A program made the translations under genes and the position numbers. A stretch of 64,000 nt of DNA from Candidatus Berkelbacteria bacterium CG10_big_fil_rev_8_21_14_0_10_43_13 (lineage in GTDB: Bacteria; Patescibacteriota; UBA1384; XYA2-FULL-43-10; 1-14-0-10-43-13). Below, one piece after another: positions 1-58,466 of the stretch (positions within the stretch are counted from its first letter, which is position 1; each line of letters starts with the position of its first letter). A model generated the notes under the pieces. That model had not been told where the DNA came from, did no database searches, and saw nothing but the letters and a program-made list of their open reading frames with translations. Location of the stretch: positions 34,240 to 98,239 of the forward strand of contig PEZW01000018.1 of assembly GCA_002773985.1 (NCBI GenBank), in the 5' to 3' direction.

Positions 1-447
1 CGAGTCTATCCCGTTGGTCGTCTTGACAAAGACACGGTTGGATTAATTATCCTGACCAACGACGGTGAGCTGACCAAAGAGCTAACTCACCCCAGTTTTG
101 AGCATCAGAAAGAGTACCTAGTTGAATGTAGAATATTGAATCCTAAATCATGGAGAGAGAGGGATATTGTTAGTAGTGTGAAACAAAAACTAACTTCTGG
201 ACTTAAGATTGATGGCAAAGTAATGAAGGTAGATAGAGTTAAAACTGCCGAAATTCAAAATTCAAAATTCATTATTCTAACCTTAGTTCTCCACACCGGA
301 TACAATCGACAGGTTCGGAAAATGTGTGCTAAAATTGGACTAGAGGTAAAAAGATTAACTCGAATTGGTATCAGTAAACTTCACCTCGACGAGTTGCAGT
401 TGAAGCCAGGCGAATTCAAAAAGATTTCTAAGGAGGATGTTTTTTAA
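1..447 (+). CDS. Pseudouridine synthase, RsuA/RluB family (5' partial; continues upstream of the window)
   Basis: Frame 1 is open from nt 1 and translates to RVYPVGRLDKDTVGLIILTNDGELTKELTHP, which is the RsuA/RluB catalytic VGRLD block. The 136..447 ORF is the in-frame continuation of this gene, not a separate gene. Confidence 0.8.
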   Translation, partial: RVYPVGRLDKDTVGLIILTNDGELTKELTHPSFEHQKEYLVECRILNPKSWRERDIVSSVKQKLTSGLKIDGKVMKVDRVKTAEIQNSKFIILTLVLHTGYNRQVRKMCAKIGLEVKRLTRIGISKLHLDELQLKPGEFKKISKEDVF

Positions 448-1427
448 TGTTTAATCTGTTTCTGCTCTTTTCAATAGCTTTTAATACGCTCGGTTTATCC
501 GGCGCTGCTATAAAAGTTGATTCTGGCCTCATCTCCAGGTCCGCTGGCGACGCCTCAGTCGCAAACGCAGAAACTCTCAAGGTTGAACTACCTGATATTT
601 TGTCATATCCGACTGTAAATCAAGACGCTACAAAGCCAAAAATTTATGCTAAAAATTATATCCTTCTCGACAGTGATTCCGGCGCAATTTTAGCCTCACA
701 AAAACCATACGAGCGTGTTCCTGTCGCGTCCACTACCAAGATAATGACAGCTATAGTTGTACTTGAAAATTACAGCCTTGATGACGTGGCGACCGTCCAT
801 CAAGACGCGGTCACCGCTGTGTCAAACAGCGGTGCTATTCCCGATTTCTACACTGGAGAAAAGATGACCGTTCGCAATTTACTCTGGTGCATGCTGATGA
901 ATTCATCAAATGTTGCTGCTTACGCTCTGGCAGAACATATGAATTCAAAAAATGAAACAGGGCCTCAGAAATTTCTTACTTTGATGAATCAGCGAGCCAG
1001 AGACCTGGGTCTCAAAGATTCAGACTTTCGTGATCCTGCCGGACTTGACGGAAAGGGCTATTCTACGGCCTTTGACCTTACTGTTATAACCAAACAAGCA
1101 CTGAAAAGCTCTCTGTTTGCTCAGATTGTGAGAACGAAACAATCAACAGTTTATGATACTAGCGGGCGGTATATTCACCAGCTCAATAATTCAAATCGTC
1201 TTGTCAATGAGTGGAATTATCCGGGCGCGATCGGCGTCAAAACCGGTTATATGCCTGACACAGCTGAGCAACCCGGTGCCGGACACACCCTTGTTGCCGC
1301 AGTCGAGAGAAATGGTCATACTTTGATTTCAGTTATTCTAAACACTACCGCTGACACTCCGACAGCGTCAGCCGAAGAATCCCGCCGCCTTCAGGATTGG
1401 GGCTGGATGAGTGTTAGTTGGCAATAA
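447..1427 (+). CDS. D-alanyl-D-alanine carboxypeptidase (peptidase S11, PBP5/6-like)
   Basis: Signal peptide, SxxK motif (ASTTK) and SxN motif (SSN) in the spacing typical of DacA-like low-molecular-weight PBPs. The start overlaps the upstream stop (TAATG). Confidence 0.8.
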   Translation: MFNLFLLFSIAFNTLGLSGAAIKVDSGLISRSAGDASVANAETLKVELPDILSYPTVNQDATKPKIYAKNYILLDSDSGAILASQKPYERVPVASTTKIMTAIVVLENYSLDDVATVHQDAVTAVSNSGAIPDFYTGEKMTVRNLLWCMLMNSSNVAAYALAEHMNSKNETGPQKFLTLMNQRARDLGLKDSDFRDPAGLDGKGYSTAFDLTVITKQALKSSLFAQIVRTKQSTVYDTSGRYIHQLNNSNRLVNEWNYPGAIGVKTGYMPDTAEQPGAGHTLVAAVERNGHTLISVILNTTADTPTASAEESRRLQDWGWMSVSWQ

Positions 1428-1502
1428 TTCAATAGTATTTAGTATAAAGTTATTAGTATGGATACAAAATACCTATAACCTCATACTTTATATTTCATAC
1501 TT

Positions 1503-2198
1503 CTAAAGCGCTGTCTTGATCTCTTCCCACTTTTCGAGTGCTTTTTGTGCGGCGTCTGATTGAGCTTTTTGCTTTGATGGACCAGCGCCTATCGCCACTT
1601 CTTTACCGCCTAGATTAGCAGCAACCGTAAATGTTTTGGAGTGGTCTGGACCAACTTCGGAAACAACAGTATATGTCGGTGTCACGCCTATCTCGTCCTG
1701 AACCAGTTCCTGAAATCGACTCTTCGAATCGTATTCCAAGCCTTCGTTCAAAATTGCATCAAGTTTGTAACAGATGTTTTTCAAAATAAATTTTGTAGCT
1801 GTTTCAAAACCTTGGTCTAGATATATAGCCCCGATCAAAGCCTCAAATGCGTTAGCCAAAATAATATCTCGTGCCTTGCCAGTGTTTTTGGCTTCACCTC
1901 GAGAAGTTTTGATATAAGGATTCATCCCCAGACGCTTGGCTTCGACGGACAATGATTCTCCTTTGACCAGCGCGCTGCGCCAATTTGTCAAATCGCCCTC
2001 AGGTCGATCATATTTTTCATAAAGAAACTTTGTCGTGGCCAATTCCAAAACAGCATCACCCAAAAATTCTAACCGTTCATTGTGCTCAAGACCTGATGAT
2101 TTATGTTCATTGAGATAAGATCTGTGGATAAACACTCGCTCTAGGAGTGCTTTATCCTCAAATTTAACCTCAATAATCTTTTCAAAATCTTCTAACAT
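1503..2198 (-). CDS. rnc: Ribonuclease III
   Basis: RNase III signature ERLEFLGDAVLEL and a C-terminal dsRBD-like region. Length 231 aa. Confidence 0.9.
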   Translation of the reverse strand: MLEDFEKIIEVKFEDKALLERVFIHRSYLNEHKSSGLEHNERLEFLGDAVLELATTKFLYEKYDRPEGDLTNWRSALVKGESLSVEAKRLGMNPYIKTSRGEAKNTGKARDIILANAFEALIGAIYLDQGFETATKFILKNICYKLDAILNEGLEYDSKSRFQELVQDEIGVTPTYTVVSEVGPDHSKTFTVAANLGGKEVAIGAGPSKQKAQSDAAQKALEKWEEIKTAL

Positions 2199-2257
2199 AT
2201 ATTCCTTTCATTACCAACTGTCGTCTCGATCCAAGGGGTCGAAATGACAATTTGCAA

Positions 2258-2749
2258 TTAGCTATCTTTATCTCTTGATTTTAGTATTTGCTTTTCGCTT
2301 TGCTTATAAATCGTTCCCAAAACACCATTGACGAACTTAGATGAATTTTCACCACCAAACTCTTTGGATAATTCGACTGCCTCGTTTATAACAACTTTTG
2401 GTGGAACATCGTTGCAATTTTTCAGTTCATAAATGGCGATTTGTAAAATCACCTTGTCTATCAGAGAAATTTGGTCAACTGGCCAATCAGGCGCGACTTT
2501 ATCGATTACACCATCGAGAGCTTCTCGATCTTTTGAAACACCTTCTGTAACCATGCGAATAAAATCGCTTTCACATCGATCCGAGTACTCAGCCACGTTT
2601 CGAGCTTCAATTTCTGCCAAATCAACACCATCACGAAATTCCCATTCGTAGAGAGTTTGCATCGCAATCATACGTGAAAGGTGACGATTCAAATTTGCCT
2701 CCGCAAATAATAACCAATTACCAAGAAACAAGTTACAAACAGTATCCAA
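2258..2749 (-). CDS. nusB: Transcription antitermination factor NusB (true start probably downstream of the ORF-track start, near [17 protein letters not shown])
   Basis: The NusB fold signature ..R..AR..A.Q.LY.. is matched by [17 protein letters not shown], and the C-terminal [13 protein letters not shown] block is present. The N-terminal 20 aa of the ORF are likely non-coding. Confidence 0.75.
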
Positions 2750-2833
2750 GCTTCAATTTTTGAATATTCAAATTTGAATATTGTAATTTATTTGGTGATT
2801 GCTTACCCCTCGTAGCCCAATAGGGCGAGGTGG

Positions 2834-3013
2834 GGTATCTTGGTTATTGTTTCTTTTCGATTACTTGTTTGCCGTTATAGGTACCACAATTATAGCAAAC
2901 TTTGTGCATTTCCTTGGGCTCGTGACATTTTTCACAATAAGCCAATGCCGGTGCTATGACTTTGTCATGCATCCGTCTCATGCCCTGTTTTGAATTGTTT
3001 GTACGTTGTTTTG
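2834..3013 (-). CDS. rpmF: 50S ribosomal protein L32 (59 aa; absent from the ORF track because it is under 60 aa)
   Basis: The reverse strand translates to MAEPKQRTNNSKQGMRRMHDKVIAPALAYCEKCHEPKEMHKVCYNCGTYNGKQVIEKKQ. The KQRT..R.H and CxxC...CxxCG zinc-ribbon layout matches bacterial L32. The plus-strand ORF 2799..2993 is its antisense shadow. Confidence 0.85.
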
Positions 3014-3122: not shown

Positions 3123-5753
3123 CTACTTAATAACAATGTTTACTAATTTCTTCGGTACAACGATTGTTTTGACAATTTCATTCCCAGCAAGTATTTTCTT
3201 GATTTTTTCAGTTCCAAGTCCTAGCTTTTTCATTTCCTCGTCTGAAATAGCTGAATCAACCGAAATTTTATCACGAACTTTTCCATTGACCTGAATAACT
3301 ACTTCAATTTTGTCGAATATGAGATATTTTTTGTCTGGCTCAGGCCATTTTTGCATAGTTAAATCGCTGTGTATTACACTTTCATACAATTCCTCGGCAA
3401 TGTGCGGCGCAACGGGAGAGAGTAAAAGTATGAACTTTTCATAAGACTTTGTGGAAATTGAGCCTATCTTTTCAACTAAATTATTGAACTCCATCAATTT
3501 CGAGACCACCGTATTCATCTGAAAATTTTCTAGATCATTGGTCACGCCAGTAATCGTTTGGTTCAATTTGACCAGCAACTCTGTCGGATCAACTACGTTT
3601 TCTTTAACCAGTTCCTGATTTCGCCAGACACGCTTCAAAAAACGATAGACGCCCTGAACCCCAGCCATATTCCAGGCCGATTCCTGATCGTATGGACCGA
3701 TAAACATAACATAAGCGCGCAAAGTATCAGCACCAAATTCAGCGACAATCTCATCAGGATTTATCACGTTACCAAAAGACTTACTCATCTTGCGCCCATT
3801 AGGACCAAGGATGATACCGTGGGCGATTCTCTTGGCATAAGGCTCTAAAGTTGGTACGACGCCAATATCATAGAGAAATTTATGCCAAAAACGTGAATAG
3901 AGCAAGTGCAGTGTCGTGTGTTCCATCCCACCATTATAGATATCAACCCCACCTCCGCTCTTCGAGCTACGCGCGGCATCGCCGGCGTCCAGCCAATATT
4001 CCAACTCTTTGGCATGTTTGGTAAAGATATTCGAACCACTTTTAACTTTTGACTTTAAACTTTTAACTAATGTGTAAGCCAAGTAGTACCAACTCGAGCC
4101 CGCCCAGTTTGGCATGGTGTCCGTTTCTCTCTCGGCCCTGCCACCGCATTTCGGACAAGTCGTCACGACCCAATCTGTGATTTTGGCAAGAGGGGATTCA
4201 CCGGTATCTGATGGTTCATAATTGTCGACAACCGGCAATTCCAGTGGCAGTTGATCATCGGGCAGAGGAACACGACCGCATCCGCCAGTTGGCGGATCAC
4301 AATGAACGATCGGGATTGGCTCGCCCCAGTAATGCTGGCGGGAAAAAATCCAGTCGCGAAGTTTGTAGTTTGTAGTAAATTCACCGGCACCGATACTTTT
4401 TAACTTTTCAGTAATTTTGATCTTGGCTTCATCTGATGACAGTCCGTCAAATTCACCCGAATTAATTAAGATTCCATAGTCAACAATCGCTTTGTCTAAA
4501 ATTTCTGATTTATGATTCAAAATTGAAACGACTTGTTTGATCGGGATATGGTGTTTCTTGGCAAATTCATAATCGCGTTGATCGTGAGCCGGGACACCGA
4601 TGACAGCACCAGTCCCATAGCTGGTCAGGACATAATCAGCGACCCAAATCTCAATATGTTCACCATTGATCGGGTTGACGGCATAAACGCCATAGCATTT
4701 GACACCGGTTTTATCTTTTTGTAATTCAGTTCGCTCTAGTTCTGTTTTTTTCGCCGCCACTTCGACATATTCCTTGATCTCATGATAGTTTTGAATATGA
4801 TAGCCAAGTTTTTCTAAAATCGGGTGCTCTGGTGAAACAACGACAAAAGTTGTGCCAAAAAAGGTATCAATTCGAGTTGTATAAAATTCGATTTCTTCGT
4901 CGTGAACGGTATTACTAAAACCCTTGACCTCAAATCGAACATTAGTACCGGTCGAGCGACCGATCCAATTGATCTGTTGAGTTTTGATTTTATCCAAGTA
5001 ATCAACAGTTTCAAGGTCATCAACCAAGCGGTCAGCATAAGCGGTAATTCGAAGCATCCACTGTTTTTGCATTCTCTTCTCAGTTTCCGTGCCACAACGC
5101 TCGCATTTACCGTCAACAACTTCTTCATTGGCCAGATTTATCTTGCATGATGGACACCAATTGACCGGCATCTCAGCGCGAAAGGCAAGCCTAGGAGTAT
5201 GGTAATCATCATCGGCAACTTCGATTAATTTTCCATTTTTAATTCCATGTTTGTAAAATTGCAAGAAAATCCACTGAGTCCAGTGATAATATTCTGGATC
5301 AGTCGTGTTTATCTCACGCTTCCAATCAAATGAAAAACCAAGCGAGTGGATTTGCTTCTTGAAATTTGCAATATTATCAGCTGTCGCTTTTTGCGGTTTT
5401 ATTTTATTTTTTATAGCATAATTTTCTGTTGGCAGACCAAAAGCGTCCCAGCCGATCGGAAACATGACATTGTATCCCTGAAGCCGTTTCATCCTACAAT
5501 AAGCGTCAGAGGCGCCATAACCCATCAAGTGACCGACATGCAGCCCCGCCCCGGATGGATAGGGAAATTCAACCAAATGATAATGCTTGGGTTTATCGTC
5601 AAAATCAGCAGACTGACCGTATTTGTTTTTTTGCCAAATGTCTTGCCATTTTTTTTCGATGACACGAAAATCATACTCCTGCTTGTCGTCCGTAGCCTTG
5701 GCGGAGGAGGGCCACTTTTTCTCAATTTCGTGAAAATTGTATTTGTCTGTCAC
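3123..5753 (-). CDS. leuS: Leucyl-tRNA synthetase (GTG start)
   Basis: HIGH motif (HVGHLMGYGASDAY), KMSKS motif, editing CP1 domain and a zinc-binding Cys cluster. Length 876 aa. Confidence 0.95.
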   Translation of the reverse strand: MTDKYNFHEIEKKWPSSAKATDDKQEYDFRVIEKKWQDIWQKNKYGQSADFDDKPKHYHLVEFPYPSGAGLHVGHLMGYGASDAYCRMKRLQGYNVMFPIGWDAFGLPTENYAIKNKIKPQKATADNIANFKKQIHSLGFSFDWKREINTTDPEYYHWTQWIFLQFYKHGIKNGKLIEVADDDYHTPRLAFRAEMPVNWCPSCKINLANEEVVDGKCERCGTETEKRMQKQWMLRITAYADRLVDDLETVDYLDKIKTQQINWIGRSTGTNVRFEVKGFSNTVHDEEIEFYTTRIDTFFGTTFVVVSPEHPILEKLGYHIQNYHEIKEYVEVAAKKTELERTELQKDKTGVKCYGVYAVNPINGEHIEIWVADYVLTSYGTGAVIGVPAHDQRDYEFAKKHHIPIKQVVSILNHKSEILDKAIVDYGILINSGEFDGLSSDEAKIKITEKLKSIGAGEFTTNYKLRDWIFSRQHYWGEPIPIVHCDPPTGGCGRVPLPDDQLPLELPVVDNYEPSDTGESPLAKITDWVVTTCPKCGGRAERETDTMPNWAGSSWYYLAYTLVKSLKSKVKSGSNIFTKHAKELEYWLDAGDAARSSKSGGGVDIYNGGMEHTTLHLLYSRFWHKFLYDIGVVPTLEPYAKRIAHGIILGPNGRKMSKSFGNVINPDEIVAEFGADTLRAYVMFIGPYDQESAWNMAGVQGVYRFLKRVWRNQELVKENVVDPTELLVKLNQTITGVTNDLENFQMNTVVSKLMEFNNLVEKIGSISTKSYEKFILLLSPVAPHIAEELYESVIHSDLTMQKWPEPDKKYLIFDKIEVVIQVNGKVRDKISVDSAISDEEMKKLGLGTEKIKKILAGNEIVKTIVVPKKLVNIVIK

Positions 5754-5831
5754 TTTATAAACTTTCCAACTTTATGAACTTTATGAACTAATCTAGTAAT
5801 AATTTATCACTTATTCAGTGCAAATTCAATT

Positions 5832-5864
5832 AAAAAAACGGCTTACACCGTTTAATTTTGGTGG
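5832..5864. terminator. Bidirectional intrinsic terminator (AAACGG-cttaca-CCGTTT flanked by an A-run and a T-run) carrying a tRNA-CCA-end remnant (TGGTGG). Left copy of a 32-bp direct repeat.
   Basis: Hairpin 5836-5853 with a T-run after it and an A-run before it. The 32 nt at 5833-5864 are identical to 10322-10353. Confidence 0.55.
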
Positions 5865-6046
5865 TGTGTTTTAAATGAAGCTCGAACTTTTTTCGAACAA
5901 AATATTAAATAAATATTTTGGTTCCAATTTTGTAATGACCCGCTCGCGCTTCGCTCCCTAAATGTTGCAATGCGGTTCGGGCAAAAAGGAAGGGGTGTAG
6001 GGAGGGAATTTTTGCCCGATAACAGGTGGGGCGAGGGGGAGAAAAA

Positions 6047-7063
6047 TTAGTGACTTATCGGCAATTGCGGAAGTTCCTTTGCTTCGGCAATCATGCTGTT
6101 TCCAGTGATTATTTTACCTATTTCCATTCTAACAGTTTGTACATTATTGTGAATAGTGCAGTATATTTTATATCTATCCATCCAATTCTTATTATGATCT
6201 TTGATTTCCAAAAGCATCAAATTATATGCATCCTCTGCCTTACTCATTGCGTCTGACATATGAATTCTGAACTCACCTGTTTGCATATATTTTAGAATAG
6301 CTTTACCCTTTTCTTCTAACTTGTCTTTGGTCAGTTTTAATTTGTGCATTTCTAAAAGCGCGTTTCTAAGTAAAAAGGCAATATCAAGTAGGCCCATGGG
6401 GTCAATAATGATGATATCGTCTTCAATGAAAAATTTTGACTTTCCTTCTTTAATAGCATGAGTTACGATCACGGCATAATTCGCTTTTGCTTCTTCCTGA
6501 TGCCTTTTTACCTCATTGATAAATGAATTTTGATATGTCGCAGTCTTCTTGCATTCATACAAAATGCTACCAATATTCTCACCGTTATTTTTGATATATT
6601 GGATCGCATCACCTTTTTTTCCCGTTGGCCTAATCTCATCCTCAGGAAAGTTTTCCGTCAATAATTTAATAACTTCTTTTTCATAATCAAAACCAGCTGT
6701 TTGTGGAGTTCGTCCCTCTTTGAGTTGTTTCTCAAGAAGTGCGATTTTACCATTCGATACTTGTATTGCTTTCGCTTGGTTTTCGATTAATTTGCTCATC
6801 TTTTCTCTTTCGCGTTTTTCCTTTTCGACTCCTTGTTTAACACCGGATTCAAGCGCGAGTTTAGACATCTTTTTTAAATCGATTTTGTGCTTAGATTCCA
6901 AATCTAACTTTTCTTTTTTAGCTTTTTCAAGCTGTTTTTGGTTTTCCTTAATTTGTTTTTGCTGATCTTCCCACTGACCAACTATGGAAATCCATTTTTC
7001 CTTTGTCAAAATACTTTTGCACAAAGGACATAAAAAATCATTTTGCTGTTCGATGTTACTCAT
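6047..7063 (-). CDS. Zn-ribbon/coiled-coil protein with a C-terminal PD-(D/E)XK-like nuclease motif (DUF2130/RmuC-like)
   Basis: N-terminal CPLC..(C) ribbon, a long Lys/Glu-rich coiled coil, and a C-terminal GDAIQYI...ILYECKKT (D..ExK-like) block. The family assignment is by recollection of architecture, not a database hit. Confidence 0.45.
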   Translation of the reverse strand: MSNIEQQNDFLCPLCKSILTKEKWISIVGQWEDQQKQIKENQKQLEKAKKEKLDLESKHKIDLKKMSKLALESGVKQGVEKEKREREKMSKLIENQAKAIQVSNGKIALLEKQLKEGRTPQTAGFDYEKEVIKLLTENFPEDEIRPTGKKGDAIQYIKNNGENIGSILYECKKTATYQNSFINEVKRHQEEAKANYAVIVTHAIKEGKSKFFIEDDIIIIDPMGLLDIAFLLRNALLEMHKLKLTKDKLEEKGKAILKYMQTGEFRIHMSDAMSKAEDAYNLMLLEIKDHNKNWMDRYKIYCTIHNNVQTVRMEIGKIITGNSMIAEAKELPQLPISH

Positions 7064-7105
7064 AGTTTCCTCAATTCATTATTTAAGACCGTCCCTGTGC
7101 TTAAT

Positions 7106-7279
7106 CTAGTTTTTGGTTTTATCGACCAAAACATATACCTGACCTGCCTTTGGAGTGGGTGGAAGCGGCTCGCCCGTTACTACGGTGCGTTCCTTTCCGG
7201 TTTCTCCCCCTCTCGGACCAATAATTTCGTATTGGCCAGAGCGGGTGGCAGTTTGGCCGGGTTTGAAAGTCTGTTTCAT
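7106..7279 (-). CDS. YjzC-like small protein (57 aa; absent from the ORF track)
   Basis: Translation MKQTFKPGQTATRSGQYEIIGPRGGETGKERTVVTGEPLPPTPKAGQVYVLVDKTKN, with a GGAGG Shine-Dalgarno 5 nt upstream of the ATG. The FKPG...G.Y...G..G pattern recalls the Bacillus YjzC family. Confidence 0.55.
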   Translation of the reverse strand: MKQTFKPGQTATRSGQYEIIGPRGGETGKERTVVTGEPLPPTPKAGQVYVLVDKTKN

Positions 7280-7392
7280 GAGACCTCCAGTTTATTAATT
7301 AGGCAAGTTCGACATTCTTACCTGCTGATTTGCAGCCAGTCGTCATCTGCTCGCAGAGGTAAACAGGGGCGGTCTTACTAATTGTCAGGCCA

Positions 7393-7422
7393 CTTGACAC
7401 TTTCCAAACGTTTTCGATATAC
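7393..7422 (+). promoter_or_regulatory. Putative sigma70-like promoter for the LexA-MTase gene (TTGACA-18-TATACT)
   Basis: TTGACA at 7393-7398 and TATACT at 7417-7422, upstream of the AAGAGGA RBS and the ATG at 7468. A TTCGA...TCGAA inverted repeat overlaps the -10. Confidence 0.3.
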
Positions 7423-7467
7423 TTAAAATGTAATCGAAAATAAATCGAAAGTCAAGAGGACAATCAA

Positions 7468-9012
7468 ATGCTCACCAAAAGACAAAAACAAACACTTGAG
7501 TTTATCAAGTCATACATCAAAAAAAATGATTTTGCTCCCTCCCTCGAAGAAATAAAAGCCCATTTAAAACTCTCGTCGGTCTCCACCGCACATCATCATG
7601 TTAAGGCTCTTGAAGATCAAGGCTATTTAAGAAAAGAAGATAATGTAGCTCGTGCCATTGATGTAGCTGAACCAGAACAAATGATTCAGATCCCAATAAT
7701 GGGTCTTATCGCGGCTGGTTTCCCTATCGAAGCTATTGAACAGCGAGAAACCATAGCAATACCAAAAACAAAATTACCAAAATCAGGTCAATTTTATGCA
7801 CTAAAAGTAGCTGGCAATAGTATGGTGGAAGAGAACATCAACGATGGAGACATCGTTGTAATAAAACAACAGGATCAGGTTGAAAATGGACAAAAAGCAG
7901 TCGCCTTGATAGACAATTCTGAGGTTACACTTAAAAAAATATATAAAGAGAAGTCATGTATTAGACTACAACCAGCAAACCATTTGGTGAAACCAATGTA
8001 TTATAATGCTGAAAGGGTTGCCATTCAAGGAATCTTGATTGATGTTGTTAGAAATACGCAAGAAGACTTTTCTGTTAATATTGATCTTAATAACACTTTA
8101 AACAATTCAGAATATATCCAACCGAATGCTATTATATGTGGGGATGCTTTGGATATGTTAAAAAAAATAAAACCAAACTCAATTGATTTAGTGCTTTCGG
8201 ATATACCTTATGGAATTTCACTAGATGAGTGGGATGTTCTTCATTCAAATACAAACTCGGCACTCTTAGGCCAATCTCCTGCCCAGATTGGAAAAAAAGC
8301 TTTTAAGAGGCGTGGCAAACCAATCAATGGGTGGTCAAGCGCTGACAAAAATATACCTCTTGAATACCAGCAGTGGTGCTACTCTTGGGGAAAAAAATTA
8401 TTTCCACTTGTTAAGGAGGGTGGTAGTGTTTTTATTTTTGGTGCTAGACGTACAATACATCGAGCTGTTATTGCACTAGAAGATAGCGGTTTTTTGGTAA
8501 GAGACGTACTGGCGTGGGAAAAACCAAACGCTCATCACCGAGCACAAAGTTTGAGTAAAATTTTTTATAACAGAGGATTATACGATGTCGGTGAAAAATG
8601 GGAAGGATGGAAACTAGGCAATTTAGCTCCGAAATATGAACCCATAGCCTGGCTTTTCAAACCATACAAGATTACAATTGCCGACAATGTGTTGAAAAAT
8701 AAACTTGGTGCTATGAATATTGAAGCATGTTTGATAGGTGGGAAATCCCCAACTAATATTTTAAGATATGGTTTCGATAAAAATGAGTCAGGGTTTCACG
8801 AGGCTCAGAAACCAGTGAAGCTATTAGAATACTTGATTAAACTCGTTACAATTAAAGGCCAAACTGTGCTGGATCCATTTATTGGCTCCGGGTCAACCCT
8901 AGTTGCAGCAAAACGATTAGACAGAAAATATATCGGCTTCGATAAATCAGATGAGTACTGTAAAATATCCAATCAACGAATAGATGAAGACAATCATGAT
9001 CCAGAGGTTTAA
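7468..9012 (+). CDS. LexA-like repressor (wHTH plus S24 autopeptidase) fused to a beta-class N6A/N4C DNA methyltransferase. This is the M subunit of a Type II R-M system.
   Basis: Residues 1-197 are a complete LexA paralog: DNA-binding domain, an IAAGFP Ala-Gly cleavage site, catalytic Ser in GNSM and catalytic Lys in TLKK. It is roughly 45% identical by eye to the canonical lexA at 57861. Residues 200-514 carry MTase motif IV (SDIPYG) before motif I (VLDPFIGSGSTLVAAKRLDRKYIGFD), the PF01555-like beta-class order. Confidence 0.75.
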   Translation: MLTKRQKQTLEFIKSYIKKNDFAPSLEEIKAHLKLSSVSTAHHHVKALEDQGYLRKEDNVARAIDVAEPEQMIQIPIMGLIAAGFPIEAIEQRETIAIPKTKLPKSGQFYALKVAGNSMVEENINDGDIVVIKQQDQVENGQKAVALIDNSEVTLKKIYKEKSCIRLQPANHLVKPMYYNAERVAIQGILIDVVRNTQEDFSVNIDLNNTLNNSEYIQPNAIICGDALDMLKKIKPNSIDLVLSDIPYGISLDEWDVLHSNTNSALLGQSPAQIGKKAFKRRGKPINGWSSADKNIPLEYQQWCYSWGKKLFPLVKEGGSVFIFGARRTIHRAVIALEDSGFLVRDVLAWEKPNAHHRAQSLSKIFYNRGLYDVGEKWEGWKLGNLAPKYEPIAWLFKPYKITIADNVLKNKLGAMNIEACLIGGKSPTNILRYGFDKNESGFHEAQKPVKLLEYLIKLVTIKGQTVLDPFIGSGSTLVAAKRLDRKYIGFDKSDEYCKISNQRIDEDNHDPEV

Positions 9013-9022
9013 ATTGAAAATT

Positions 9023-9877
9023 TTATTTTAGTCCAGATATTTTTCTAATCTGAATTAGGCGATTATCAAGCTTCTCTGCCTTAATAAGTAACTCAATTGC
9101 TTTTTCTTTAGTTAGTGATGAAATTTCAGAAATTTTATTCTCGATATAAGCTATCTCTTCTTTCGCCATTCTTGTTAGCGCCACCTGCTCAACTTTTTTA
9201 AATCTACATAATTCTTTATTCGAAATCGAGAGAATTTTACAGATGGAGCTATCAATGGCTTTCCAATATAAGCTAGCATCTTTCTCCCCTTTGAGCTTTT
9301 CTCCTGATAGCCACAATCCCTTGTAGTCTAAGTTACCGCAATTGGGGCTAGACAATATGCAATATAAATGAATATATGAAAACAAAGTAACATTTTTTGC
9401 TGTTGCTTGTCTGTATATTTGACTACTATTTTTTGGGTACTGATACAGCGGCGATACAAGGCAAGCAAAGTCTTTATCTTTTTTCCATTTATCCAATGCT
9501 TCTACTTTAAAATCTTTTTGATTCTTTGCGGTTCTGCTTAATCTAAATAATTTAGCATCAGCGACTATTGTATAGTTTTTTGTTTCACCCTCAACATCTG
9601 CAGAGTCTGCTCTTTCTTTCAAGACTTTTGCGTTTAAACCCATAAATGAAAGCGCCCTCGCTAATAAAACATCAGAATACTTGGAGTATATTTTTTCCTC
9701 AGTCGAATCGTGTGAAAATGACTCAGGAATAATACCGCACTCAAGAAGATGAAGCATAACTTCTTCTTTGGTAAACTTCTCGACTATTGAGATTATCCTT
9801 TCACTATACTCAGTAAAAGAAAGTGGCTCATCAGAAATTTTAGAAATAAAATTTATAATTTCAATTCTTTTCATCAA
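9023..9877 (-). CDS. Type II restriction endonuclease, HindIII-like (PD-(D/E)XK)
   Basis: The block ADVEGET...YTIVADAKLFRLSRTAKNQKDFKVEALDKWKKDKDFACLVSPLYQYPKNSSQIY matches my recollection of the R.HindIII catalytic region (D..D-A-K). It overlaps the C-protein gene by 17 nt, which is characteristic of C-R operons. Confidence 0.6.
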   Translation of the reverse strand: MMKRIEIINFISKISDEPLSFTEYSERIISIVEKFTKEEVMLHLLECGIIPESFSHDSTEEKIYSKYSDVLLARALSFMGLNAKVLKERADSADVEGETKNYTIVADAKLFRLSRTAKNQKDFKVEALDKWKKDKDFACLVSPLYQYPKNSSQIYRQATAKNVTLFSYIHLYCILSSPNCGNLDYKGLWLSGEKLKGEKDASLYWKAIDSSICKILSISNKELCRFKKVEQVALTRMAKEEIAYIENKISEISSLTKEKAIELLIKAEKLDNRLIQIRKISGLK

Positions 9878-10079
9878 AAAGATCCTTTATATTTAATTTA
9901 AGAGATTTAGAAATTTTTTCAATATTCTCCAAGGTTATATTCTTCTCCGCTCTCTCAATCATCCCGATGTAAGTCCGGTGAACACCAGCAAAACCGGCAA
10001 GCTGCTCTTGCGATAGACCTTTCTTCAATCTTTCTTCGCGAACTTTGTCGCCAAATTTTTTTAGAATTTCTTTTTTCAT
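9861..10079 (-). CDS. Controller (C) protein of the R-M system (XRE-family HTH, 72 aa)
   Basis: Small HTH_3 protein (LSQEQLAGFAGVHRTYIGMIERAEKNITLENIEKIS). Its stop overlaps the REase start, and tandem palindromic boxes lie immediately upstream. Confidence 0.7.
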   Translation of the reverse strand: MKKEILKKFGDKVREERLKKGLSQEQLAGFAGVHRTYIGMIERAEKNITLENIEKISKSLKLNIKDLFDEKN

Positions 10080-10094
10080 ACAGATTAAATATAC

Positions 10095-10140
10095 AGATAT
10101 TGCTAACTTTAGTTCTACATACTATAGTTAGCATATAAAA
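10095..10140 (-). promoter_or_regulatory. Putative C-box operator pair (GCTAACT ATAGTATGTAG AACTAAAGTTAGC)
   Basis: A 7-bp outer inverted repeat GCTAACT/AGTTAGC encloses two ACT-N2-AGT cores (ACTATAGT and ACTAAAGT), 20-40 nt upstream of the C-gene ATG. Confidence 0.4.
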
Positions 10141-10321
10141 AGATAAACAAAAGGGGTTTCACTGTCTTTCGCGCGGCGGGAGGGAGGGCAAGTGAAAGTA
10201 AATAATCCGCCCCGCCCACAAAAAGCCCTACTTCGCTGAAGCTACGAAGGAGGCGCCGAGAGCGTGCGCATTCCCTCCCCATACCCCTCATTGCTCACAC
10301 CGAATAAAATTTAGAGCAAAT

Positions 10322-10353
10322 AAAAAACGGCTTACACCGTTTAATTTTGGTGG
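10322..10353. terminator. Bidirectional intrinsic terminator plus the CCA end of the adjacent tRNA-like fragment. Right copy of the 32-bp direct repeat.
   Basis: Identical to 5833-5864. Hairpin AAACGG/CCGTTT with flanking A-run and T-run. Confidence 0.55.
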
Positions 10354-10400
10354 ACCCTAGGAGACTCGAACTCCTGACCTAGCCGATAGATCGGCTCGCG
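10348..10400 (-). pseudogene. Truncated tRNA-like 3' fragment (anticodon arm with a 6-nt loop, T arm AGGAG-TTCGAGT-CTCCT, acceptor 3' strand, ACCA). There is no 5' acceptor or D arm.
   Basis: The reverse complement reads ...AGCCGATCTATCGGCTAGGTCAGGAGTTCGAGTCTCCTAGGGTCCACCA. No complementary 5' acceptor strand (AGGGTCC complement) exists upstream. Confidence 0.45.
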
Positions 10401-10414
10401 AATTTGTTTTTATT

Positions 10415-10491
10415 TGGTGGACCTGACCGGGCTTGAACCGGTGACCTCCTCGCTGCCAGCGAGGCGCTCTAGCCAACTGAGCTACAGGCCC
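10415..10491 (-). tRNA. tRNA-Ala (anticodon GGC), CCA encoded
   Basis: Hand-folded cloverleaf: acceptor GGGCCTG/CAGGTCC with the G3:U70 Ala identity pair, anticodon stem CCTCG/CGAGG, loop CUGGCAG, T arm ACCGG-TTCAAGC-CCGGT. Confidence 0.9.
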
Positions 10492-10645
10492 ATTAAAGAA
10501 AAACAAATGGCCCAACTAAGCTAAGGGCCCAATGTTGTCTGAATACAATTCTAGCACAAAAATCGTCAATCGAGAAGAGCATTGAAGTGCGTTGATTGAT
10601 TTCTGTTTTGCGATATAATAATGACATACTTATTTTGGAGGGAAT

Positions 10646-11839
10646 ATGCCGGATCAGGGGATACTAGAATATATCCGTGCCGAGAAGGCGCGTGGTGTCG
10701 ATGCTGAGACAACAAGAAACGAACTCTTGAAAGCCGGCTGGAAGGTCAGTGATATTGAGGTCGCTTTTCGTGCTATGACACCGGAGCCGACCGTAGAGAG
10801 TCACCCGACTGCCGTGACGGCTACTGATTTTTCGAAACTTACCGAACACAAACCATCACCAACAACGATCGCCTTGCAATCAGTTCCGAAATTCAAGTCG
10901 AAGAGATTGATCTTCGAGCTGTTTGCCGTGATCCTGATAGTTCTAGCCGGCGGGGGAATCACTTATGGATATTATTATCACCTCTCACCTTATCTGGTAC
11001 TGAACAAAAGTATGGGCAAGTTATCTGAAGTCAAGACCTTTGAATATTCTCTCACAATCTCAAACACTGACACATCAAACAAATATGACAACTTCACTCT
11101 ACAGTCCAGAGGCGTCGAAGATATCACTGATTTGAATAACACCAAAAGCTCGATCACTCTGAGTGGCACTTCGGCCGATGATAGCACCTTTACCAATCCG
11201 ATCGGATTTCAAATTGATTACCGCAACATTAGCCACAATATTTACGCCAAAGTAGACAAACTTGATGGACTCGAAGACCTGGCTGCGCCCATCTTCGATA
11301 AATGGATTAAGTTTGATTTAACTCCGATCAAGGAGCAATATGATCTCGACAAAGTTGACGAGCCAGTAGCTGGCAGTAAGGATGCATCCAAGATTTCGTC
11401 TGATCAGAAAGATAAATTGTATAAAGCGCTGAAGGCCGATAAAGTCTTTGACTTTTCAGAAAGATTGCTCAATGAAAAAGTAAATGGTGTCGATGCAACT
11501 CACTATCAAATCACTCTGAACAAAGAAGGTTTTCTAGAATTTTACACCGACGCCGCAAAAATTCTGTTTGACAGAGAGTTTACAAACAATGATATCAAAT
11601 CTATGAGGCAAGATTTACGAGTAATTAATTCCGCCGACATAGAGATTTGGATCGGCAAGAATGACTCACTGCCATATAAAATAGTCGGATCATCGCAAAT
11701 CGTCGATCCCAAGACATCTAAAATCACCGGCAGCTCGACCCTGACGCTGAATTTCAAGAATTTCAACAAATCGGTCACTGTCGCAACTCCTACCGATACA
11801 ATTTCGTTCGAAGAAGCCTTCGGCCTTCTCTTCAAGTAA
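10646..11839 (+). CDS. Hypothetical membrane-anchored protein (one TM helix near residue 95)
   Basis: Long ORF preceded by a TTGATT-16-TATAAT promoter-like sequence and a GGAGGG RBS. No recognisable catalytic motif. Confidence 0.5.
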   Translation: MPDQGILEYIRAEKARGVDAETTRNELLKAGWKVSDIEVAFRAMTPEPTVESHPTAVTATDFSKLTEHKPSPTTIALQSVPKFKSKRLIFELFAVILIVLAGGGITYGYYYHLSPYLVLNKSMGKLSEVKTFEYSLTISNTDTSNKYDNFTLQSRGVEDITDLNNTKSSITLSGTSADDSTFTNPIGFQIDYRNISHNIYAKVDKLDGLEDLAAPIFDKWIKFDLTPIKEQYDLDKVDEPVAGSKDASKISSDQKDKLYKALKADKVFDFSERLLNEKVNGVDATHYQITLNKEGFLEFYTDAAKILFDREFTNNDIKSMRQDLRVINSADIEIWIGKNDSLPYKIVGSSQIVDPKTSKITGSSTLTLNFKNFNKSVTVATPTDTISFEEAFGLLFK

Positions 11840-11884: not shown

Positions 11885-13183
11885 ATGATTACCGAACATA
11901 AACCGAACTCTCATCAACCATTGGCTGAGAAATTGCGACCACAAACGCTGGATGATTTTGTTGGTCAGGAACACATCCTCGGTGAGGGGAAGATATTGCG
12001 GCGAATCATCGAGTCGGATCGAATTATCCCGATGATTTTTTGGGGACCACCCGGCTGTGGCAAGACTACATTAGCGAAAATTATTTCCAACAAAACTGAT
12101 TCTAGTTTTGTCTTCTTCTCCGCTGTCACCAGCGGCGTTGCTGATGCCAGAAAATTGATCGCCACCGCGCACGAGGAATTGGAAAATAAAAATCACCGCA
12201 CTATTTTATTTGTCGATGAAATTCATCGTTTTAGCAAATCACAGCAAGACCTGTTTTTGCCTTATGTCGAATCAGGCACTATTATTCTGATCGGGGCAAC
12301 AACAGAAAATCCCTCTTTTCAGGTCAACGCACCACTGCTATCCCGTGCTCGGGTTTTTCATTTTCGCGAAGTGACGATCGACGAAATTATTAAATTAGTA
12401 AAGTCGGTGATTAAAAGGATCAACGCTAAGCCGTCAGAATATTTCCCGACTTTATTTGGTGATTATAAAATAAAAATATCGATTACTGAAGATGCACTTC
12501 AAACTATCGCCAAACTTTGTGACGGTGATGTCAGAGACGCATATAACACTCTCGAGCTAGCAATTATTTCCGCTCCTTATTCTTCGAGTGAATCGAGAAG
12601 TAACAGAAGTAGTTCTCGACTAAGCTCGAACGATAAAATAAATATTGATCAAAAACTGGCCGAGGAATCGATCCAGCAGAAATTTATCCGTTACGACAAG
12701 GGAGCCGATCAACACTTCGATGCGATTTCTGCACTTCATAAATCAATCCGTGCCTCACAACCCGATGCCGCTCTACACTACTTGGCCCGTATGCTTGAAG
12801 CCGGTGAAGATCCACTTTATATTGTCAGACGACTTGTCCGACTCTCAGCCGAAGATATTGGTCTAGCTGACCCACAAGCACTAATTTTAGCTACTTCGAC
12901 GCAACAAGCAGTCCATTTTCTCGGCATGCCGGAATGCAATGATGTCATCGCTGAATTAGTCATTTATCTAGCAAAAGCCAAAAAATCCCGCGCAGTCGAT
13001 GACGCCTATAGTGCGGCAAAAAATGATGTTATAAATGCTCGACTTGACCCGATCCCACTCAAAATTCGCAATGCGCCGACAAAAATGATGAAGGATTTTG
13101 GCTTCGGCAAAGACTATAAAATGTACGACCAAGGGTCGCATCTGCCGGAGAATTTGAAAGATAAGAAATATTGGAAAGAATAG
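11885..13183 (+). CDS. rarA: Replication-associated recombination protein A (AAA+ ATPase RarA/MgsA)
   Basis: Walker A (FWGPPGCGKTTLA), Walker B (FVDEIHRF), and a C-terminal MgsA helical domain. It has a Ser-rich low-complexity insertion (SSSESRSNRSSSRLSS). Confidence 0.9.
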   Translation: MITEHKPNSHQPLAEKLRPQTLDDFVGQEHILGEGKILRRIIESDRIIPMIFWGPPGCGKTTLAKIISNKTDSSFVFFSAVTSGVADARKLIATAHEELENKNHRTILFVDEIHRFSKSQQDLFLPYVESGTIILIGATTENPSFQVNAPLLSRARVFHFREVTIDEIIKLVKSVIKRINAKPSEYFPTLFGDYKIKISITEDALQTIAKLCDGDVRDAYNTLELAIISAPYSSSESRSNRSSSRLSSNDKINIDQKLAEESIQQKFIRYDKGADQHFDAISALHKSIRASQPDAALHYLARMLEAGEDPLYIVRRLVRLSAEDIGLADPQALILATSTQQAVHFLGMPECNDVIAELVIYLAKAKKSRAVDDAYSAAKNDVINARLDPIPLKIRNAPTKMMKDFGFGKDYKMYDQGSHLPENLKDKKYWKE

Positions 13184-57633: not shown

Positions 57634-57860
57634 GATTATATTAGCGTTTTTCAATTTTTTGTCAATCTTATTAAAAGTTTTCCACAGGCCTTTGTTTGAC
57701 TTTTGTTTGGGTTATGTTCGATAATGTATAAGTAAACAGACCGAACACAATCGGATTTCAATTCTACCGACACTAAATATTAATCCGCATTTGTATGTTT
57801 GTATTAGATTTGTCCCCCAAAGGGGGATCTCCCCTTGGGATGATAATTTGTAGATATCTT

Positions 57861-58466
57861 ATGGAAACACTGACAAAAAAACAAAAAGAAATCCTAGAAT
57901 ATATCCGTCAATTCATTGACGAAAACGGCTACGCGCCGAGCTATCGCGAGATTGCTGCTTATTTTGAATTATCATCGACCGGAACCATCGCTGAATACGT
58001 TTCTATATTAGAAGATAAGGGCTATCTGACAAAGGAAGCGACCGAAGCTCGTGCGATCCAGTTGACACCGGCTTATGATGACGGCGTCGAGTTGCACTCG
58101 ATACAACTCCTTGGAATTATCGACGCCGGCCGGCCGATCGAAGCCATCAGGACAAACGAAACAATAGACATACCTCGTGATATGCTGGGGCGACATACTT
58201 TTGCCCTCAAGGTTCGTGGCGAATCAATGATTGATGACGGCATTTTGGAGGGGGACTATGTCATCATTGAACAGACATCTTTGCCAAAAAACGGCGAGAT
58301 CGTCGTCGCCTTGATCGATAATTCGAACGCCACACTAAAACGCTACTATAGTGAAAAAAATAGTGTTCGTCTCCAGCCGGCCAACAAGACGATGAAGCCA
58401 ATGCTATTCAAAAAAAATCGTGTCACCATCCAGGGTCGTGTTAAAGGCGTCATCCGCAAGTTCTAA
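57861..58466 (+). CDS. lexA: LexA repressor (start taken at METLTKK)
   Basis: wHTH domain, DAG cleavage site, Ser (GESM) and Lys (TLKR) dyad of the S24 peptidase. Confidence 0.85.
   Translation: METLTKKQKEILEYIRQFIDENGYAPSYREIAAYFELSSTGTIAEYVSILEDKGYLTKEATEARAIQLTPAYDDGVELHSIQLLGIIDAGRPIEAIRTNETIDIPRDMLGRHTFALKVRGESMIDDGILEGDYVIIEQTSLPKNGEIVVALIDNSNATLKRYYSEKNSVRLQPANKTMKPMLFKKNRVTIQGRVKGVIRKF

Follow-up and report, generated by a model that had tools for sequence, protein, structure and literature searches.

This report concerns a small restriction-modification (R-M) cassette of Candidatus Berkelbacteria bacterium CG10_big_fil_rev_8_21_14_0_10_43_13, a member of the Patescibacteriota, which lies in a 64,000-nucleotide (nt) stretch of contig PEZW01000018.1 (positions 34,240 to 98,239 of the forward strand, GenBank assembly GCA_002773985.1) that we call the window and in whose coordinates all features of this genome are given. 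The cassette incorporates three genes: a methyltransferase gene, M (7468-9012, + strand), whose 514 amino acid product begins with a whole LexA protein; a gene for a HindIII-family restriction endonuclease, R (9023-9877, - strand, 284 amino acids); and a gene for a controller protein, C (9861-10079, - strand, 72 amino acids). Judged by its gene content, it is a Type II, HindIII-type, C-controlled R-M system with a beta-class methyltransferase. Its G+C content is 0.33-0.37, against 0.40-0.46 in the flanks.

The M gene is a single open reading frame (ORF). Reading from its N-terminus, it encodes a LexA winged helix-turn-helix (wHTH) DNA-binding domain (residues 2-63, 7471-7656; PF01726, LexA_DNA_bind, 63 bits vs a cutoff of 24) with the recognition helix SVSTAHHHVKAL; an S24 peptidase and dimerisation domain (residues 76-190, 7693-8037; PF00717, Peptidase_S24, 96 bits) with a predicted self-cleavage site at Ala83-Gly84 (7714-7719) and a catalytic dyad of Ser118 (codon 7819-7821) and Lys156 (codon 7933-7935); a disordered linker (residues ~197-215, 8056-8112) that varies in length and sequence in alignments; and a beta-class N6A/N4C methyltransferase domain (residues 239-502, 8182-8973; PF01555, N6_N4_Mtase, 152.8 bits). 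In the last of these motif IV, SDIPYG (residues 244-249, 8197-8214), precedes motif I, DPFIGSGST (residues 469-477, 8872-8898), which is the order of the beta class. The NCBIfam lexA equivalog model TIGR00498 spans residues 2-197 with 183.1 bits, vs a cutoff of 110.95, and comparison with the Protein Data Bank matches residues 2-195 to the Thermotoga LexA 3k2z (E 2e-34), the LexA structures 3k2z and 1jhh aligning over residues 2-196, and residues 440-506 to methyltransferases of the CcrM/DpnA/MboIIA class. By these family matches the N-terminal half of M is a bona fide member of the LexA family. An AlphaFold2 model of the fusion has a mean predicted local distance difference test (pLDDT) score of 75 and consists of three folded modules between low-confidence segments at residues 58-69 and 197-210, with pLDDT below 50 in the second of these. 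The identical 514 amino acid protein is found on three contigs and is recorded as a hypothetical protein of Candidatus Berkelbacteria CG10_big_fil_rev_8_21_14. A complete LexA fused in frame to a beta-class methyltransferase had been proposed in a first-pass annotation made from the letters of the DNA alone, and this is borne out by the four models, which all match within the one ORF, as well as by the strings on which the proposal was built (IAAGFP, GNSM, TLKK, SDIPYG and DPFIGSGST), all of which are in the translation.

The endonuclease, taken to be HindIII-like in the same annotation, matches PF09518 (RE_HindIII) with 243 bits and the HindIII crystal structures 3a4k and 2e52 with an E-value of 6e-44. 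Its catalytic block VADAKLFRLSRTAKNQKDFKV (~9503-9565, - strand) is nearly identical to that of HindIII, the two having ADAK.FRLSRTAKNQKDFKV in common. The C protein matches HTH_3 (55 bits) and the PADLOC Control_protein model (75 bits). M had been described as converging on a C and R operon with a 17-nt overlap; the genes do converge, but M and R are separated by a gap of 10 nt (9013-9022) and the overlap belongs to C and R, where it amounts to 17 nt if R starts at the TTG at 9877, or to 14 nt if it starts at the ATG at 9874. Palindromes resembling C-boxes had also been noted upstream of C, and they correspond to an inverted repeat at 10101-10133, TGCTAACTTTAGT / ACTATAGTTAGCA, with 13-nt arms that are 92% complementary and two sub-palindromes, AACTTTAGTT and ACTATAGT. 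The same sequence is kept, identically, upstream of the homologous C gene in another locus (L003), and related boxes are present in L042 and L050. The window contains 18 sites for AAGCTT, vs 25.6 expected, which is no significant avoidance.

A scan for sigma-70-like promoters over positions 7200-10400 gave as its best match, with 11 of 12 positions, the promoter of M, TTGACA (7394-7399) and TATACT (7418-7423) on the + strand with an 18-nt spacer. Two candidate operators are placed in it. O1 (7401-7418, + strand), TTTCCAA-ACGT-TTTCGAT, is an imperfect direct repeat with two mismatches that fills the spacer between -35 and -10, a position at which homologous promoters also have a direct repeat. 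O2 (7433-7450, - strand), TTTCGAT-TTAT-TTTCGAT, is a perfect direct repeat in the inverted orientation that closely follows the -10 and covers the likely transcription start of M. It is the only perfect TTTCGAT-N4-TTTCGAT in the window, where 0.01 would be expected by chance. Within the window's cassette we found LexA-type operators at the M promoter only, and none at the C/R promoter. The first-pass annotation had envisaged coupling of either methylation or restriction control to the SOS state; this distribution speaks for methylation as the object of any direct control, with restriction affected only indirectly, if at all. Binding of the fusion to O1 and O2 is a prediction from their sequence and position.

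The architecture is not confined to this genome. A protein search returned about 27 full-length fusions of 45-69% identity on many independent contigs, and when a single genome of each GTDB species was scanned with an alignment of the LexA halves, 80 loci came up, nearly all of which carry the label Patescibacteria. (A search with the LexA half alone gave mostly LexA proteins or fragments of ~200 amino acids and was unhelpful for counting fusions.) With eight loci from an exact protein look-up and the window itself, this makes 89 LexA-type ORFs, 81 of which are methyltransferase fusions of 390-645 amino acids (~78 distinct), the other eight being free or cut by a contig end. In the fusions that were scanned with Pfam, the methyltransferases to which LexA is joined are beta-class N6_N4, permuted N6_N4, D12/Dam and N6_Mtase/Eco57I enzymes. 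An adjacent downstream ORF is present for 72 fusions and is convergent, with abutting or overlapping 3' ends, in 63 of these; a C-protein gene follows in 29. By sequence the partner ORFs form 23 clusters or more, and no fewer than ten restriction-enzyme families are represented, with nucleases of the HindIII, MvaI/BcnI, TaqI, BglII, MamI, BsaWI and HNH/EndoVII families among them; the co-directional partners that were scanned with Pfam are second methyltransferases or small nuclease-like ORFs.

Across 87 distinct LexA-type N-termini, from modules down to ~45% identical, the columns of the cleavage-site Ala and Gly and of the catalytic Ser and Lys, which were located with an E. coli LexA sequence as a ruler, are invariant (87/87). 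The residues whose absence would have told against the first-pass proposal are therefore all in place, and their invariance argues for selection on self-cleavage, since a domain kept for dimerisation alone would be free to lose them. A natural non-cleavable variant does occur in P0049 (382 amino acids), in which only the LexA wHTH is fused to the methyltransferase and the S24 domain is deleted. A separate feature of the methyltransferases is that most HindIII-type homologues, fused or unfused, end in Q-x-x-L-F after a variable tail (NQVSLF, QSKLF, QVRLF); in the alignment of P0002-P0029 and P0062 this ending is similar to QL[SD]LF, the motif for binding to the bacterial beta sliding clamp, and it is absent from the M protein of the window, which ends ...EDNHDPEV.

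The operators recur with the fusions. The 18-mer of O2 occurs once each in 11 of the other 168 loci, in ten of them directly upstream of a LexA-type gene, and almost all of the LexA-type promoters examined contain an 8-mer that recurs with an 11-bp period, either adjoining the -10 or lying after it. At each locus the promoter of the fusion itself is essentially the only place where the operator is found. The core of the repeat changes with the recognition helix: STAHHHV goes with TTTCGAT, STAHFH with TTTCTAT, STVHQHI with TTCGGTA, ST(I/V)NHYM with TCTAGT, and helices of HEH type with CGG-containing cores such as (T/C)TCGGG. Over 67 loci the identity of the helix and the similarity of the repeat are correlated with a Mantel r of 0.57, a value inflated by shared ancestry and reached by none of 2000 permutations. 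L003 alone has a further operator-like sequence, TTTTCTATTCATTGTCTAT (2698-2716 of that locus, + strand), at the junction of the C end and the R start, with one mismatch to that locus's own operator.

The same promoters carry two other recurrent elements. Of 84 distinct LexA-module promoters, 48 have a perfect DnaA-box, TGTGGATAA/TTATCCACA, at about the place of the -35 (62 if up to one mismatch is admitted), against a background of 63 of 7773 100-nt windows of the same loci, and the box stands some 10-14 nt upstream of the direct-repeat operator in L003, L007, L009, L010, L014-L017, L055, L079 and many others; its place in the M promoter of our window is taken by the TTGACA of the -35. The pentamer GTCAA precedes the start codon of LexA-type genes by 5-25 nt in 40 of the 84 promoters, vs 2% of background 25-nt windows. 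In the cassette under study it is at 7451-7455, where together with the -35 region it makes up an inverted repeat of 9 nt (7390-7398 / 7451-7459).

The LexA part appears to be a module that has moved between R-M systems. LexA halves that are 80-90% identical are joined to methyltransferases only 24-38% identical, which implies that the module has been shuffled among R-M systems. In L004 the LexA half is 73% identical to that of the window and the methyltransferase 32%, and the fusion lies beside a weakly ApaLI-like R gene and a C gene. Directly upstream of that cassette, at 45-3003 of its locus, is a system resembling a cyclic oligonucleotide-based antiphage signalling system (CBASS), with a CD-NTase gene, SMODS/CD_NTase_C matches and DUF8370/8371, so that the gene content of L004 suggests a defence island. 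Unfused methyltransferases, the closest of which are 70-74% identical to ours, also converge on HindIII-type R genes and do so with no LexA, which marks LexA as an add-on. Stand-alone LexA genes of the same group are also found near restriction genes, in a lexA-M-R.TdeIII operon (L088), in a lexA-DpnI pair (L061), converging on Mrr (L078) and next to NOV_C (L062), and one (L019) has a housekeeping context. Two different fusions of 485 and 621 amino acids occur in one metagenome-assembled genome (L016, CBDVEN010000076, and L058, CBDVEN010000074), both with a TTTCTAT operator, and cross-regulation between R-M systems would therefore be possible there. Carriage by phage was considered and rejected, one full fusion (L089) and one partial match being all that was found among 2.9 million viral contigs.

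The window also contains a stand-alone host LexA (57861-58466), to which, in keeping with the alignment that the first-pass annotation had reported, the fused LexA is 47% identical over 198 residues (E 1e-59). The promoter of the host gene has a direct repeat of 11-bp period between its -35 and -10, with the core GTT(T/C)G (57705-57720), and the recognition helix of the host protein differs from that of the fusion. A common operator for the two proteins, which had been put forward as something to look for, is consequently rejected: the architecture is shared, but the cores (TTTCGAT vs GTT(T/C)G) and the recognition helices are not. Cross-talk between host LexA and the fusion is possible on this evidence, though it is not indicated. 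Perfect GTTCG-N6-GTTCG repeats are found at 5883-5898 (- strand), between leuS and a DUF2130 gene, and at 11893-11908 (- strand), at the start of a rarA/mgsA-like gene (11885-13183); such repeats are candidate host SOS boxes, and their total of five, vs four expected, is not above chance. Just upstream of the -35 of host lexA (~57680), to be compared with the DnaA-boxes of the LexA-module promoters, is TTTTCCACA.

With respect to its surroundings, the cassette adjoins a tRNA-Ala gene (10415-10491, - strand). Between the two is an orphan 3' fragment of a tRNA (10348-10395, - strand) comprising the T arm, the 3' strand of the acceptor and CCA; its 5' half is missing and the window has no other copy of it. 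The fragment is called by neither ARAGORN nor Rfam and may be the remnant of an integration site beside the cassette; a G+C-rich stretch (10150-10300) separates it from the C-boxes. An Rfam scan of 5700-10700 found nothing relevant besides the tRNA-Ala. Just upstream of M on the other side is the DUF2130 gene (6047-7063, - strand), which is also present in L005 (608-1912) and L006 (200-1504) with an otherwise different cassette; the protein encoded in the window contains the motif D...ECK, which hints at a PD-(D/E)XK nuclease, and the gene may belong to the same defence island. When the flanks were compared by blastn with all loci for a conserved cassette boundary or att sequence, short matches were obtained in one other Berkelbacteria contig only. 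In L001, L003 and L006 the cassette has a large serine recombinase beside it, which the sister contigs L002 and L005 lack, a distribution that speaks for mobility of the cassette.

We hypothesise that this is a horizontally acquired HindIII-type cassette under two independent controllers, the C protein and a LexA-methyltransferase that represses its own gene and is cleaved in the SOS response so as to raise methylation upon DNA damage, and we give this reading a little better than an even chance. By homology with PvuII- and Esp1396I-type systems, the C protein governs the C and R operon through the C-boxes. A dimer of the fusion would bind the 11-bp-period repeats of O1 and O2, as the position of the operators and their covariation with the recognition helix suggest, and autorepression by the fused LexA would hold the methyltransferase at a set point; C-terminal fusions to full-length LexA still bind operators, as for example in the baits of yeast two-hybrid systems. 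Damage, including breaks made by the cell's own endonuclease at unmethylated sites, would give rise to RecA filaments on single-stranded DNA, in response to which the LexA half is expected to cut itself at Ala83-Gly84, an expectation founded on the strict conservation of Ala-Gly, Ser and Lys and on what is known of the family. Sensitivity to RecA and coupling to SOS, which the first-pass annotation had put forward, thus remain predicted properties of the fusion. Release of the wHTH would then derepress the M promoter, a fragment consisting of the S24 domain and the methyltransferase would accumulate, and the net outcome would be increased methylation in response to damage. The 3' ends of M and R abut and leave no space for a terminator, so that interference of M transcription with R is to be expected, and stronger transcription of M would run antisense into the convergent R gene. 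Together these two effects could amount to a Type II form of restriction alleviation, or to an autoimmunity feedback in which breaks from self-restriction lead by way of RecA and cleavage to the restoration of methylation; once the damage signal is over, intact fusion would repress the M promoter again.

A broader proposal, for which we would put the chances at slightly under even, is that Patescibacteria own a portable, damage-sensing controller of R-M systems, in which a LexA module, made up of promoter, direct-repeat operator, wHTH and self-cleaving S24 domain, has been recombined onto at least four classes of methyltransferase and also placed alone beside methylation-dependent nucleases such as DpnI and Mrr, so that self-inflicted breaks would, through RecA, cause methylation to be restored. 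On this proposal it would be the first autoimmunity sensor, or circuit for restriction alleviation, described as built into a Type II R-M system.

Several observations weigh against the two-controller reading. No recA gene was found within the window. The covariation of helix and operator is uncorrected for kinship, and promoter and domain move as a single module. In E. coli, ClpXP degrades the fragments of cleaved LexA, and if the fragment carrying S24 and methyltransferase met with degradation of that type, damage would lower methylation. Where a stand-alone LexA lies upstream of DpnI or of an M-R operon, the outcome of damage would be induced restriction, which fits raising defence better than protecting self. 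Lastly, the cassettes of L007 and L008 have no C gene, so the circuit is not uniform.

Among the other explanations, the one to which we give most credit, while still thinking it unlikely, is that the LexA half is an autorepressor only, a dimeric DNA-binding unit that provides tight feedback and a 'methylase first' timing upon entry to a new cell, with cleavage either irrelevant or a slow form of turnover. The operator is indeed in the fusion's own promoter at essentially all loci, the cassette seems mobile from its recombinase neighbours, and the known methyltransferases with a fused helix-turn-helix (HTH) act in this way with no sensor domain (PMC12707154). A mere dimerisation scaffold could, however, have lost the Ala-Gly, Ser and Lys that all 87 sequences retain, and P0049 indicates that a fusion reduced to the wHTH is possible yet rare. 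Cleavage is central to another reading, to which we assign a distinctly smaller probability: damage would trigger loss of protection, in the manner of suicide or abortive infection, the methyltransferase fragment being destroyed, new sites left unmethylated and the cell killed by its endonuclease. The VAA end of cleaved E. coli LexA targets it to ClpXP, and the predicted N-terminal fragment of the fusion ends in the similar ...LIAA. R-M systems behave as toxin-antitoxin-like addiction modules (PMC3874152), and related stand-alone LexA genes stand upstream of restriction genes that damage would induce. Against such an outcome, cleavage would at the same time derepress the M promoter, opposing depletion, and the HindIII-type methylation already on the chromosome would last until replication.

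Less probable again, in our view, is that the fusion is a second cellular SOS regulator that acts mainly on host SOS genes or forms mixed dimers with host LexA, the methyltransferase being a passenger or tethered to SOS boxes. This would agree with a LexA half that scores above the equivalog cutoff and is up to 65% identical to stand-alone LexA proteins of Patescibacteria, one of which, that of L019 in its housekeeping context, has the same TTTCGAT operator, and with the repeat architecture of the host lexA promoter. But the single perfect operator of fusion type in the window is at the M promoter, the helix of the host protein differs and its repeat is of GTTCG type, the module moves together with many kinds of R-M cassette, and there is no AAGCTT site in the M operator region. 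The last alternative, that adjacent lexA and M genes were joined by an error of sequencing or assembly, is one that we regard as negligible. Unfused arrangements do exist, such as the operon of L088, and two genes or a frameshift had been named at the outset as what might undo the proposal; yet a continuous ORF with a linker of conserved length is present in ~80 assemblies that were made independently in different projects, three contigs carry the identical protein, and an artefact or frameshift is rejected on account of this recurrence. Our preferred interpretation is the HindIII-type cassette with a C protein and a putatively damage-responsive LexA-methyltransferase.

If this is the case, the data suggest that these bacteria may connect protection from the restriction enzymes they make with the alarm raised by DNA damage. 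How a Type II system spares its host when repair or recombination yields unmethylated sites is poorly understood, and damage-induced alleviation of restriction is established only for Type I systems. A methyltransferase with an SOS-sensitive repressor of its own would offer a direct answer that is open to testing. It would join the known strategies of R-M control, namely C proteins, HTH-fused methyltransferases, promoter methylation and antisense RNA, as a class that responds to a signal, and it would connect defence of the genome with the response to DNA damage in the Candidate Phyla Radiation. This very large, uncultured lineage relies, according to earlier reports, on R-M systems rather than CRISPR. 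The LexA-methyltransferase is a widespread design in Patescibacteria and not a one-off. The pairs of helix and direct-repeat operator, with five or more specificities, form a natural data set for LexA-DNA recognition, and the LexA modules could supply orthogonal, cleavable repressors for synthetic biology.

As to precedents, the first-pass annotation had called the architecture unfamiliar, and we too found no description of a fusion of LexA or S24 with a methyltransferase in the literature searched, the Patescibacteria SOS study (Sanchez-Osuna 2017) lying outside that search; the word LexA is absent from a 2025 review of R-M systems (PMC12707154). The PADLOC model for Type II methyltransferases aligns into the S24 domain of the fusion, and LexA-methyltransferases may thus already be among the sequences behind that model, presumably from REBASE, where they would have passed with no comment.

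In its enzymes the cassette is closest to the HindIII system of Haemophilus influenzae, which has a homologous endonuclease with the nearly identical catalytic block and a beta-class methyltransferase; the comparison of R is one of homology and the AAGCTT specificity is putative. We know of no LexA fusion in the HindIII system. With PvuII, Esp1396I, AhdI and Kpn2I the cassette shares a small HTH_3 C gene upstream of and overlapping R and paired palindromic C-boxes of ACT-N-AGT type. In those systems M is either unregulated or controlled by C or through methylation at the M promoter, whereas here there appears to be an additional autorepressor of LexA type.

The repressor half is built like LexA, lambda CI, SetR of SXT and UmuD, with a wHTH and S24 fold, Ala-Gly, Ser-Lys and a candidate operator in the protein's own promoter, and self-cleaving S24 repressors are a design by which mobile elements sense SOS. 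The fusion is unlike them in its covalently joined enzyme, of which we have seen no description for LexA, in having, in the window, apparently a single promoter to control rather than a regulon, and in its candidate operator, an 11-bp direct repeat and not a palindrome. Direct-repeat motifs have evolved several times in LexA, the Patescibacteria study being among the sources cited for this (PMC7739468).

In functional terms, the closest relatives are the autorepressing, HTH-fused regulatory methyltransferases SsoII, Ecl18kI and EcoRII (PMC12707154), like which the protein of the window would work while not belonging to them by descent. As in M.SsoII, M.Ecl18kI and M.EcoRII, an N-terminal repressor domain is joined through a flexible linker and has its operator in its own promoter, autorepression being in our case a prediction. 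M.MspI is a further enzyme of this kind. However, the SsoII, Ecl18kI and EcoRII enzymes are C5-cytosine methyltransferases with a short HTH, no sensor and an operator between divergent M and R promoters, whereas in the present group a whole LexA with its S24 domain is fused to several classes of N6A/N4C enzyme, the M and R genes are convergent and a C protein accompanies R.

Damage-responsive control is also known from other defence systems. CapH/CapP of CBASS and the WYL-type BrxR/CapW are repressors of defence islands that are inactivated on DNA damage, upon which the linked system is raised; these are of other protein families, are encoded as separate regulator genes, and control the effector rather than the antidote. 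The alleviation of Type I restriction that follows damage (PMC12707154) answers the same problem, that of unmodified sites arising during repair, and likewise prevents self-restriction. There, host ClpXP degrades the restriction subunit HsdR after translation (PMC12707154, PMC11109961), whereas for the Type II cassette described here we propose that self-cleavage of the fused repressor would reach the same end through transcriptional derepression of M.

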